Positions 37,681-44,328 of a stretch of 64,000 nucleotides of DNA are shown here, one piece after another. Both the position numbers and the translations under genes were made by a program. The notes under the pieces are model-generated. The model did not search any database and was not told where the DNA came from. It saw only the letters and a list, made by a program, of their open reading frames with translations. Source of the DNA: Eledone cirrhosa (Eukaryota); the NCBI GenBank assembly GCA_964016885.1, contig OZ024740.1, forward strand, positions 170,066,001 to 170,130,000, in the 5' to 3' direction. The first letter of the stretch is position 1; each line of letters begins with the position of its first letter.

Positions 37681-38906
37681 CAGTGGATTTAAGGAGTTGT
37701 TACAAAAAGTTGGACAATATGCTATGTAGTATTTGTGTTCCACTGATTTGCGTTCTGAATTCAAAGTTGGTTGAATTACTACGCCACCCAGTGTAACACC
37801 ACGACCGTCTTTTAGTCTGCTTTTAGAAGAGTTCTCCTGTTTTCAAGCGTTTGGATCATGTTACTGGTTTGGAGATAATTGCTTCCCTTCCTCTCTCCAG
37901 ACTCTGAAAGGAACGAACATACATAATAAATTAAAACCAAAAAATGGATTTGGTTTTGACGAGGTGCTGTGTGTTTGGTGTTCGGAAGACACTGAGATCA
38001 ATACTTTGCTACCTGTTAGCATGGGATTGTGCCACACACCCTATTGTAATACTATACTATAACTTTTATTAAACGATACATTTATTCTTCTGACCAGATG
38101 ATACCTTATTATTCCTCACTATATTGTTTTGCCGTTCTATCTTTATCGTCAAACCATAAACTGTTCCTGCTCATCATAATTTGAAACACCTTGTATTAAA
38201 AGCAACCACATTGCCACATGTCCCATAATATAACATTCAACTGATATTTGAATACATCATTGACAGTGCACATGAATATTTTCATGCAGAGTGCAAGATC
38301 TCACGCCCAATTTAATAAGTAGCTTTACGTTTAAAGTAATTCACTGAGCTACGACATTCAAAAGGTTTTGTCTATTATATTAATGTGATCTGTAAGTAGA
38401 ACACTACAGTCAGAGAATTCATCAAGGAGCATATCCAATGTTCGTTGTTCAGATATTAAATATTAGGAGAACATTACGATCACTTGATAAATCAATACAG
38501 GCATGTCTATTAACAGTACAATTCCATTTGTTTAGCCTACATTAATTCCCAATTGTGGCCCAATGTTATGGTTCAATGTCTGGCTTTAAACGACGTGACA
38601 TCATATAAATAATTCAGAGCATATACAGTTTATTTATTTTATAGAGGAAAATATAGGAACTAAATAAAGTAGAAGAATATTTCACAATATAGTGTGTCTT
38701 TGTAGTGCTGCGCCTGTGATTCCTATTTGTTTATTAATAACCTGATTGTTTTATCTTAAATACAGACACGTGTTGTGTTCTGTGGTATGATGAGCTCGAT
38801 AAAACACCGACCCACAGATGTATATATATATATATAGAAAAAAAGATGAAATCGAAAATGCAACTGGAGTCTTATTTTTTTTAAAAATATATATATTTAT
38901 TTGGTT

Positions 38907-38943
38907 CCTTTACCGGTTTCACAGTTCTTCTGCTTTTCAAAAG
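38907..38943 (-). ncRNA. Minimal hammerhead, U3-A8 core
   Basis: Reverse complement of 39021-39057. Confidence 0.7.
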
Positions 38944-39020
38944 TAGAGTTGAGATGGAGGGTCTGTGGTTTTTCTCACATCAGATGTGAGAAAAACCACA
39001 GACGCTCCATCTCAACTCTA

Positions 39021-39057
39021 CTTTTGAAAAGCAGAAGAACTGTGAAACCGGTAAAGG
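39021..39057 (+). ncRNA. Minimal hammerhead, U3-A8 core
   Basis: CTT-TTGAAAA-GCAG aagaa CTGT-GAAA-CCGG-TA-AAG. Confidence 0.7.
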
Positions 39058-39485
39058 AACCAAATAAATATATATATTTAAAAAAAAAATAAGACTCCAG
39101 TTGCATTTTCGATTTCATCTTTTTTTCTTTATACTTTCACTCGTGTAGGACACCTCGGTTATTTTTCATTTTGTTAAAAAAACCTCACTTTCTAATATAT
39201 ATATATATATATAATATATATATATATATGTATATATATATATATAATATATATATATATATATATATATATATATATATATATATATATATATATATAT
39301 ATATATATATATATATTATATATATATATATATATATATATATATATTATTATATATATATATATATATATATATATATATATATATATATATATATATA
39401 TATATATATATATATATATATAATATATATATATATATATATATATATATATATATATATATATATATATATATATATATATATA

Positions 39486-39863
39486 AGGAAAAGAAATCGA
39501 AAATGCAACTAGAGACTTTTTAAGAATATTTATTTATTTCCTTTATGGGTTCCACAGTTCTTATGCTTTTCAAAAGTAGAATTGAGATGGATGGTTTATG
39601 GTTTCTCTCGTATCTGGTTCGTATTCGAAAGTTCTTTCTGTTTTATGTGTAAAAAGTGGCTCGAATTGTTGGGGTTTAAAATTACTTTGTTTGGTTGATG
39701 ACAGTCACGCGAATAAGTACAATAAATGTTGCGCCAGTTCGAGTTCTAGAGTTCTTATTGTATTTGCCTTAAAAAATGTGGCTCAAAATGTTGTTTTTTT
39801 ATAAGTGTAATTTGTTTGGTTGATGACTGTCACTTGAACAAGTACATCAAATTTCGCGCCAGT
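39486..39863 (-). mobile_element. Older, longer relative of the HHR element (PLE 3' UTR) with an internal ~123-bp tandem duplication
   Basis: 39490-39610 is a diverged match to 38840-38975. Units ~39617-39738 and ~39739-39863 share gtggctc...tttgtttggttgatgac.gtcac..gaa.aagtaca..aaat.t.gcgccagtt and resemble 21420-21535. Confidence 0.7.
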
Positions 39864-39929
39864 TATATATATATATATATATATATATATATATATATAT
39901 ATATATATATATATATATATATATATATA

Positions 39930-41989: not shown

Positions 41990-42605
41990 AACATTCCTAT
42001 AGACTAGTACTAAACAAGCTAGAAAAAGACTCCTGAATAATCATAAAAGAAGCGGACAAAGATGGAGCAATCGTCATTATGGACAAAAACCAATACAAGG
42101 ATATGGTCTTAGAATAGTTGAATGATGAGCATTTTTACAAGAAAATCAGCAAAAAGCGAAGAAAGAAAATCGATGATTCAAGTAGGCAAACTGACGACAA
42201 AGTACCAAAATAACCTCACGCTAAAGGAAATCAATTACTTAACCAACTTCGAAATGAAAACCTGCAACTTTTATGAATTACCGAATGTTCACAAATCCAG
42301 AGAAATCCTAAACAACATAAAAGCAAAAATACCTCATATGTTGAAGTACAAAACCGACAGATTTAAAATTACGCCCAATTGTTGCTGGTCCACCCTCAAG
42401 AACACAACGTCTAAGCAATCTATTAGATATCATACTGAAACGCTAATGTAAAAAAGTGCCAAGCTTCATCAGAGATGATATGGAATCCCTGAACTATATC
42501 CCCAGAAAGTACACCAAGAAACAATCTTAGTCAGCTTTGACGTAACAACCTTATATACTAACATCCCACACGACTTAGGAATTGAAGATGTTGACTTCTG
42601 GATTA
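41990..42605 (+). pseudogene. PLE reverse transcriptase fragment
   Basis: IIIKEADKDGAIVIMDK..Y, FYELPNVHK, LRPIVAGP...RLSNLLDIILK, ILVSFDVTTLYTNIPHDLGI. Confidence 0.85.
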
Positions 42606-42747
42606 CACTAGATCTACCAAGTCATAATATTATAAAATTAAGTCAAATTGTTTAGAACTACAAGTGAAGTCATTCTTTTCCTTTTTTCAAATATATATAT
42701 ATATATAAATATATATATATACATGTATATATATATATATATATATA

Positions 42748-43038
42748 GCGGCGATGAATTAGTTTAGCGAGGTTTTTTATATGAAATCGTGTGTCGAAAC
42801 AAATATTGTTATACTTGGGGAGGGTCATATTTGTGTAATATTGCCAGAATTAATAACAGAACACACTCACTGTTTGGTTGGTTTTCGCTTCTCGCTGTCT
42901 TTTATATCTGTAATCTAGCTTACTCGGTCCTCAATGTTGCCATTGACTGACCGACGGTCAAAAATAATACAGATACAATATCGACACAAACACATATATA
43001 TAGTTTACATAATTTACATAAATCTTTCGTTGCACATG
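42748..43038 (-). mobile_element. PLE 3' end, inverted copy of 41117-41352 extended to the apparent terminus
   Basis: Near-identical reverse complement; 3' end abuts (TA)n; 5' end stops in the HHR stem II loop. Confidence 0.85.
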
Positions 43039-43039
43039 T

Positions 43040-43510
43040 GATTGGAGGGGGGAGTTCTGCTACTAGGATTAGTATTGGTATGGTTGCATGGTGTACTTAT
43101 GGGGGTGGTGGTGTTGCAGGGGGGGGAGTATATTTTTTTTAGTTTATGATGGTTGCTGAATGCGATATGGCTAGTTATGTTCGATGTAGTGGAAAAGGAG
43201 ATTTTAATCTTGTTTTTATTAAAGAGTTTGTAATATCTATGGTTGGGGGGGGGGGTTAGATAGGATGGAGAAGAGGCGTTTAGGGATGTTAGTAGCTAAA
43301 TTAGATGGGAGAGGGGGGTTAAGCCAAGTGATCTTTCTAGGCCTGTTACTTCTATGGGGTCTAGCAGAATTGGGAGGGGCATTAATAGGGTTATTATTGC
43401 CAAGGTGCTTGCTAACGTTCAGCCTATTAACATTTCGTATTCAAGGGTTGATTCTGAATCTGTTACTAGGAGTAGGGAGTAGGCCTCTGCCACTATTACG
43501 ATTACCTGTA
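43040..43510 (-). pseudogene. PLE linker fragment (related to the families at 1-1260 and 60390-62130)
   Basis: RKITWLNPPLPSNLATNIPKRLFSIL...PNHRYYKLFNKNKIKISFSTTSNI. Confidence 0.7.
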
Positions 43511-44116
43511 TAGGTGTTGGTAGGCCTAAAATTCCGGAAAATCTGGCTAATGTGTTTCTAGTTCTAGTGTTACAACTCTCATCGGCGCCTTTGGCTCTTC
43601 AAGGAGTTACCTCCCAATAAACCCATCTCTATATAATAAGATAATTTTCCTACAAGAAACCATCTTGATATGCGATAGGCGACATTGTTTACTTTCAGCC
43701 TCGACAGATATGTAATGTTTGTTTATACCATACAGCTGAGTTCTCCAGTGCCAAGGGACCCCTCCAAGGCAGCTGCTAATATCGGGATTCTTTACGGACA
43801 TGTAACCCTCTTATTTTATTTTTATTTTTATTTCTACTTTATATATATTAATAATTTCATTATCTCATCTCAAGTTCCGTGGATCTGCTCCATAATATTA
43901 TTTTATGTTACTTATCTTTCTCTGTACCAAATCAATAACGATCATACCATCGATTGATCCAGAAATATTATATGGAGTAGTGAAACAATTGTAAACTGAC
44001 ATTCTTCTCCTCTCTTCTTTATATTAAACTGCACTTAATGTTGATACTCTTTGACTAATGTATTCTATGTGAGTTTGCGGTCTTGATTTGCTTAACTTCT
44101 GAATATATATATATAT

Positions 44117-44328
44117 ATGTGAGAAAAACCACAGACCCTCCATCTCAACTCTACTTTTGAAAAGCAGAAGAACTGCGAAACCGGTAAAGGAACCAAATAA
44201 ATATATATATATTTTTTAAAAATAAGACTCCAGTTGCATTTTCGATTTCATCTCTTTTTCTTTATACTTTCACTCGTGTAGGACACCTCGGTTATTTTTC
44301 AATTTGTAAAAAAAACCTCACTTTCTAA
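44117..44328 (+). mobile_element. Solo 212-bp non-coding HHR element in (TA)n
   Basis: Near-identical to 38984-39195, with the same 5' (atgtgagaaaaacc) and 3' (cactttctaa) boundaries. Confidence 0.88.
44154..44190 (+). ncRNA. Minimal hammerhead, U3-A8 core
   Basis: CTT-TTGAAAA-GCAG aagaa CTGC-GAAA-CCGG-TA-AAG. Confidence 0.75.

Follow-up and report, generated by a model that had tools for sequence, protein, structure and literature searches.

A 212-bp hammerhead-bearing repeat of Eledone cirrhosa is the terminal segment of a Penelope-like element, and its free copies may be run-off reverse transcripts

Endonuclease-bearing Penelope-like elements (PLEs) of the Neptune/Nematis type combine a reverse transcriptase (RT), a CX2-5CxxC linker and, at the C terminus, a GIY-YIG endonuclease (EN) with partial tandems, a head-to-head inverted arm, an optional tail of 30-40 bp, a hammerhead in the pseudo-long terminal repeat (pLTR) and (TA)n targets (PMC8557442, PMC3846280). 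The Poseidon PLE of Anolis has two fixed 3′ ends, AT-rich targets and a hammerhead near the junction of pLTR and open reading frame (ORF). Its tail is set by two sites at which RT starts internally, 111-118 nt into the ORF, and in vitro it requires RNA from the ORF side; neither run-off copies nor 5′-end statistics are reported in the accessible text (PMC11167929). Animal non-long-terminal-repeat retrozymes are short, non-coding, AT-rich and related to PLE pLTRs, carry a type I hammerhead, and occur as head-to-tail tandems with at least two hammerheads and circular RNAs (PMC7229834; bioRxiv 10.64898/2026.07.22.740005). Here we analyzed 64,000 nt of Eledone cirrhosa DNA (contig OZ024740.1, positions 170,066,001 to 170,130,000; hereafter the window), in which an earlier note, made from the letters alone, had described a 212-bp hammerhead-bearing unit as a candidate for a discrete, SINE-like (short interspersed nuclear element) and retrozyme-like parasite. 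Each component of the system is of an element type described before, and the literature covers pLTRs, tails, inverted arms, solo pLTRs, single scattered hammerheads and retrozymes derived from PLEs. The statistics of its copy ends nevertheless form a strong and apparently undescribed constraint on PLE replication. The thousands of free copies are probably dead-end run-off complementary DNAs (cDNAs), made when RT primes inside an RNA and falls off its predicted transcription start.

The unit is numbered from window position 44117 (Table 1). The two 212-bp copies in the window are identical at 201 of 212 positions without gaps (BLAST 94.8%, E=7e-94) and terminate at the same base before (TA)n; the claim that they also start at the same base holds to within about 3 nt, the start of the first copy being uncertain by that much. 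Their flanks are unrelated, which speaks against local duplication. As had been noted, they are non-coding (longest stop-free frame about 60 codons, no notable ATG-led ORF), both carry the minimal hammerhead motif with its U3-A8 core, a shorter inverted copy (unit 1-150) accompanies the first, and an older relative, 77-80% identical to the unit, lies nearby.

A search of the 3.0-Gb genome with the unit returned 40 best matches of near-full length and 97-100% identity; these favour full-length copies and were kept out of the end statistics. Thirteen of the 30 matches that were retrieved run on upstream into one common sequence, and following it we reached an RT/GIY-YIG frame. Full-length copies have a 28-nt AC-rich spacer between the unit and the ATG, and a second unit, ending at 212 or 150, lies about 4.67 kb downstream. 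The 4,672-bp repeat period encodes RT and GIY-YIG: the 775-aa frame of one copy (L202) matches RVT_1 (E=1.3e-6; 28.7 bits, slightly below the cut-off of 29.6) and, C-terminal to it, GIY-YIG (E=2.1e-6), the latter preceded by a C-X4-C-X2-C linker, and 6,963 candidates include 771 relatives at E<=1e-30. Given that a CX2-5CxxC motif between RT and EN defines the Neptune and Nematis clades (PMC8557442), the two domains and the linker mark the parent as Neptune/Nematis-type in domain content, and its family also shows the pLTR-ORF-pLTR partial tandem, the optional tail and the inverted arm. The unit matches the end of the parent at 98-100% identity; it forms the terminal segment of this autonomous PLE family and directly precedes its ORF. 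The PLE origin proposed earlier is thereby borne out. The GIY-YIG PLE inside the window is not the parent but only a sister family, and the parent was found elsewhere in the genome. The tail, at 62 bp, is longer than the 30-40 bp of described relatives, and the unit's ends lie before the ORF, whereas in the Anolis element RT starts within it.

A further frame of the parent, ORF1, of 400 aa, shares an overlap of about 90 nt, in the -1 frame, with the RT-EN frame of 775 aa (L202:2992-3082; also L193, L194 and L205) and has no Pfam match. An in-phase T TTT TTA heptamer is present in 17 of the 18 copies found, with a weak stem 7 nt downstream, and the arrangement probably reflects programmed frameshifting; a figure legend mentions PLEs whose ORF1 is frameshifted (PMC8557442, Fig. 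1).

To define the copy ends, we used an exact 21-mer of the tail, which occurs 8,187 times in the genome, and mapped the first 93 sites by position, corresponding to the first 41.5 Mb of one contig (C1). The 3′ end lies at 212 in 86 of these copies and adjoins (TA)n in 84, extending to the family the (TA)n setting seen in the window. Their starts fall into three groups, with 51 at -4 to +10, 21 further inside and 21 extending upstream. Thus, 51 of the 72 copies that reach +10 (71%) stop at -4 to +10, compared with a fraction of at most 0.10 in 16 other 15-nt intervals (binomial P ~5e-63 against the background stop rate). Extrapolated to the genome, short tail-bearing copies number at least about 4,500. 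Exact 20-mer counts over the whole genome go from 1,668 (-57 to -38) and 1,920 (-21 to -2) to 10,221 (+5 to +24), a step across +1 of about 4-fold after correction for exact-match rates of 10/21 and 41/64. The mapping recommended in the earlier note hence shows starts concentrated within 15 nt, not scattered continuously, in agreement with its view that random 5′ truncation is not the cause; the fixed length applies to these 51 copies, the other 42 being longer or shorter than the unit. About half of the tail-bearing copies therefore form one fixed short class, unlike the Neptune/Nematis-type elements described so far. An inverted arm accompanies 29 of the 51 short copies, whereas 19 border on a TA/GT microsatellite and three on other sequence. 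Of 43 inverted arms, 31 have their end at 150. The two 3′ ends of the unit, 150 and 212, match the known PLE tail. Eight starts cluster at 71-85, just past the predicted hammerhead cut, a cluster inseparable from microhomology at an internal AT-rich palindrome. Apparent starts at -506/-509 were discarded as alignment breaks at a (CA)n tract. Contigs from four runs of unrecorded type, all from one study, likewise display a step close to +1 and have loose (TA)n ends at 1, 150 and 212; they may stem from the very sample that was assembled, and their depth gives no copy number, so we did not count them as support.

If +1 were a stop imposed by the sequence itself, units linked to an ORF should stop there too. 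Exact unit/ORF junctions number 97 genome-wide (94 single sites and three in one tandem), and all were retrieved. The sequence continues into the ORF at 88 of them, 60 of these reach +10, and three stop at -4 to +10, i.e., 3 of 60 ORF-linked units (5%) compared with 51 of 72 terminal units (p=8e-16). Sequence alone therefore does not account for the stop at +1, and long copies rarely come from linear, +1-started RNA primed at its 3′ end. Their templates appear to have no free +1 end; a covalent circle, a seamless strand transfer between two units and read-through transcripts all fit. The same counts bear on two other explanations of the short class, namely random 5′ truncation and solo-pLTR formation by direct-repeat recombination. 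The scattered starts of 42 of the 93 copies are what truncation would give, and solo pLTRs have been ascribed to recombination or deletion in a rotifer (PMC3846280), but truncation is at odds with the excess over the background stop rate, and recombination would keep the 5′ pLTR's own start, which is at +1 in only 3 of the 88 ORF-linked copies. Together, the start hotspot and the ORF-linked counts refute these processes as the main source, and we find them hardly credible. Neither a dominant class of short copies delimited by a start site nor this first-pass versus second-pass contrast turned up in a literature search for which most subscription journals and Repbase were outside the scope; Fig. 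S2 of PMC11167929, on genomic copy ends, may bear on the point.

What position +1 represents was examined in the sequence upstream of it. A TATAAAA box is located at -31 to -25 in 67 of 73 long arms, about 30 nt above +1, and is missing from the short copies, as it lies outside the unit. Two related families, the sister family and the older one, have TATAAAA or CATAAAA at the matching place, and both the sister family and the parent have a short stem starting at -1, in which one change is compensatory. The TATA spacing, the box in related families, the stem and a weaker excess of starts in the sister family make it likely that +1 is a transcription start. The CCAGAT found 30 nt below TATAAAA resembles an initiator. 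Alternatively, +1 could mark some other fixed end or processing site of the RNA, or a point of resolution at the DNA level that acts on the first pass only. The spread of starts over -4 to +10 would agree with this, but the spacing to the TATA box would then be unexplained, the predicted hammerhead cut lies at 70 and not at 1, and a stop due to sequence or structure should hit ORF-linked units as well; this explanation seems unlikely. Described PLE transcripts start within the pLTR (PMC2377424). An intron running from the hammerhead cut to position 164, suggested by donor- and acceptor-like motifs, was rejected, as the one spliced junction guessed for it has no genomic match and the sister family does not conserve the acceptor. 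Long arms also hold, upstream of the TATA box, CCAAT-like and E2F-like (TTTCGCGC) motifs (L061:9340-9425; window 39737-39864), partly conserved and duplicated in the older relative.

The head-to-head insertions provide a second view of priming. We classified 45 junctions, a set in which two loci are seen twice and 30 loci chosen for a long arm are included. The 150 end is paired with the 212 end in 35 junctions and none pairs 212 with 212; by arm length, 17 are short-short, 11 long-long, 8 inner-inner, 7 inner-short, 2 inner-long and none short-long. In 31 of 35 arm pairs both arms have the same subfamily marker at 36/37; of the four pairs that differ, three show single-base or gap changes and one a true switch. 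Both arms of one insertion were probably copied from the same template. A pure fold-back of one cDNA was rejected as the origin of the hairpins, given that the tail-less arm often reaches further upstream (L042, L163, L179, L181, L067, L068) and the reverse also occurs. At L239 (L239:1355-1950; C3 near 292.52 Mb), both arms share one aberrant junction that occurs at no other place in the genome, and three turns of a 165-bp unit are present in one of them. Five independent insertions (L239, L259, L276, L306 and L332) join 38-60 nt of ORF-side sequence to unit position ~84-112, and their permuted repeats, all lacking a hammerhead, look like small-circle copies or template jumps. They were found via the junction motif and so constitute no independent proof that ORF-side RNA is needed.

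Based on these data, we propose the following model. Pol II (RNA polymerase II) would initiate at about +1 from the promoter of an upstream pLTR. The GIY-YIG endonuclease would cut (TA)n, and RT would prime the two target ends on a single RNA, at 212 for one and at 150 for the other, as has been demonstrated in vitro with a different PLE. In linear transcripts this priming site would be internal, at the unit/ORF junction, so both cDNAs would run off at +1 and give either solo 212-bp copies or, via microhomology, 150+212 hairpins. Lacking the TATA box and ORF-side sequence, the short copies would not copy themselves. Long copies would require templates without a free +1 end, either a hammerhead-cut, religated circle or a strand transfer between two pLTRs. 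The short products would recall retroviral minus-strand strong-stop DNA, a short cDNA that is primed near the 5′ end of the RNA and runs off; priming by target DNA and insertion distinguish the present proposal, and the likeness is an analogy only.

A related possibility is that the short copies were retroposed in trans from short non-coding transcripts, driven by the 3′-end promoters of long truncated copies, each product lasting one generation and being delimited by the start site. Such sources would be plentiful, at least 1,920 arms keeping sequence upstream of +1 compared with 97 ORF junctions, and their use also predicts common haplotypes and fits a weak excess of template-borne mutations. 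However, were priming possible at 212 with (TA)n behind it, linear mRNA primed in the 3′ unit should yield full-length copies that start at +1, which only 3 of 60 do, and the anole PLE needs ORF-side RNA in vitro (PMC11167929). We regard this origin as rather doubtful.

A SINE-like or retrozyme-like parasite derived from the PLE end, the interpretation given in the earlier note and taken here as independently replicating, makes different predictions for sequence lineages. The unit does have SINE-like traits, namely fixed ends, no coding capacity and a very high, dispersed copy number; non-autonomous PLE derivatives are known (PMC8557442; bioRxiv 10.64898/2026.07.22.740005), and the (TA)n upstream of 19 of the 51 short copies could replace the TATA box. 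We compared 180 arms after duplicate removal, tabulating haplotypes and applying a permutation test. None of the seven commonest tail-bearing haplotypes is confined to short or to long copies; in the position-ordered set, divergence is 1.65% for 74 short arms and 1.34% for 47 long arms (p=0.23); and two private changes are common to short copies of different loci in a single pair only. Short-copy lineages with diagnostic changes absent from the autonomous partner were not found among the 180 arms, although two hints described below point the other way. Head-to-tail hammerhead arrays are absent from the 93 loci, five of which have only a same-strand fragment within 700 bp, and the sole tandem, at L239, is without a hammerhead, so the second hammerhead needed to release a monomer or circle is missing. 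In contrast to animal retrozymes, the copies stand alone or in head-to-head pairs, and their sequence is that of the parent's end. Taken together with the lack of an upstream TATA box in short copies, this indicates that the unit is not a retrozyme; the shared haplotypes, the exact match to the parent's end and the many copies of other lengths indicate that it is probably not a separate SINE either, and a self-sustaining parasite is quite unlikely.

Several observations weigh against the run-off model. Four single C>T variants are common to short copies only, compared with 1.4 expected (permutation p=0.04), and private mutations shared by both arms occur six times in 23 short pairs and not at all in 12 long pairs (p=0.17). 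Some short copies may therefore come from slightly diverged sources, which may be promoter-bearing copies with dead ORFs acting in trans, and the family is so young that the power to detect sub-lineages is low. The mapped copies are all tail-bearing by selection and represent one contig's first 41.5 Mb. The start site is argued from motifs and copy ends, and the short unit could hold an internal promoter, by analogy with Penelope of D. virilis, whose promoter is internal and TATA-less (PMC2377424). The excess of starts in the sister family is weaker (counts of 2,014 vs 1,271, about 1.5-fold after correction). The weakest step of all is the circle or strand-transfer template for long copies: hammerhead mutants of the anole PLE left insertion unaffected in vitro (PMC11167929), and the sister family, with GCAA in place of GAAA in 16 of the 17 hammerheads sampled, still makes long copies.

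The circular template was proposed for PLEs in 2014, without evidence obtained in vivo, in a paper that also described the U3-A8 hammerhead variant (PMC4209133). The unit has all the parts, i.e., the core boxes in this variant, stems I and II and a short palindromic helix III, in the order TTGAAAA, 4-bp stem II, GAAA, palindromic ACCGGT and TA. A pattern scan, run with no shuffle control, finds five such motifs in the window, all within unit copies or the sister PLE, and hammerhead is absent among 98 Rfam matches at E<=1 in the window. Core columns vary by 0.7% among unit copies, compared with 1.1-1.5% at other columns, and the helix III palindromes of two unit copies pair when co-folded. The motif is a putative ribozyme, and circles are a hypothetical part of the PLE life cycle. 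Tentatively, two template pools can be envisaged: linear mRNA, primed only near its 5′ end, would give strong-stop-like dead ends, and full-length and tandem copies would come only from hammerhead-closed circular RNA, with both target ends primed on one RNA, 62 nt apart.

The sister family has at least 2,241 young copies and likewise two 3′ ends, and the small GTGT/ACAC stem in the 62-bp tail of the 44117 copy recurs in its tail. Its hammerheads in the window lie at 21327-21356 (-) and 24023-24052 (+). The reported match of hammerhead and flank to the sister PLE is real (78% over 65 nt at 23990-24054, E=3e-10), but it falls in an inverted arm, the true copy in the 3′ untranslated region being at 21325-21389 (-). 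Another PLE-like family lies in (TA)n at 39930-41352 (+), with an inverted arm at 42803-43040; its C-terminal frame is GIY-YIG-like with no Pfam match, and a hammerhead-like hairpin at about 41105-41140 was rejected by the pattern. Two more inverted-arm insertions, 44328-44670/45155-45497 and 32788-35241, have arms that are 97-98% complementary and are probably other PLE families; the 44328-44670 insertion shares its (TA)n tract with the 44117 copy. Finally, 1884-15850 holds several nested, partly intact RT-bearing copies resembling long interspersed nuclear elements (770-aa and 555-aa frames), with (TTA)n tracts.

Table 1. Positions in the window of unit copies, hammerhead motifs and related PLE ends
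Feature	Position	Strand	Basis or remark
Solo short copy, unit 1-212, within (TA)n tract	44117..44328	+	alignment and family-wide end mapping
Tail, unit 151-212, 62 bp, between both 3′ ends	44267..44328	+	end mapping
Hammerhead motif, minimal type I with U3-A8 core; cut predicted after unit 70	44157..44186	+	pattern scan
Short copy, unit 1-212, tail-bearing arm of head-to-head pair	38984..39195	+	alignment; start ambiguous 38981-38984
Hammerhead motif in first copy, G-U pair in stem II	39024..39053	+	pattern scan
Inverted tail-less arm, unit 1-150, same insertion as 38984-39195, ends in (TA)n	38831..38980	-	alignment
Hammerhead motif in inverted arm	38911..38940	-	pattern scan
Older related PLE end, tail-less type, with upstream promoter-like sequence, hammerhead core decayed	39486..39863	-	alignment
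Sister PLE, 5′-truncated, GIY-YIG frame 22442-22915, tail-bearing 3′ end	21172..23290	-	inner boundary approximate, by eye
Inverted tail-less arm of sister PLE, holds 23990-24057 match	23290..24172	+	left boundary approximate

How PLEs regenerate their pseudo-LTRs and what the hammerhead does are questions on which the stop counts of this unit touch. A young and abundant family here provides a constraint based on counting, with 71% of first-pass and 5% of second-pass copies stopping at one base. The model names exact positions that can be tested, in that transcription would begin at +1, the hammerhead would cut at 70/71 and RT would prime at 150 and 212, and the idea of a circular template is directly testable as well. 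The results also counsel caution in annotation: an abundant repeat of fixed length that bears a ribozyme is not necessarily a SINE or a retrozyme. If true, the existence of two template pools would amount to in-genome evidence for the proposed circular intermediate and would jointly explain the pLTRs, tails and inverted arms of these elements.

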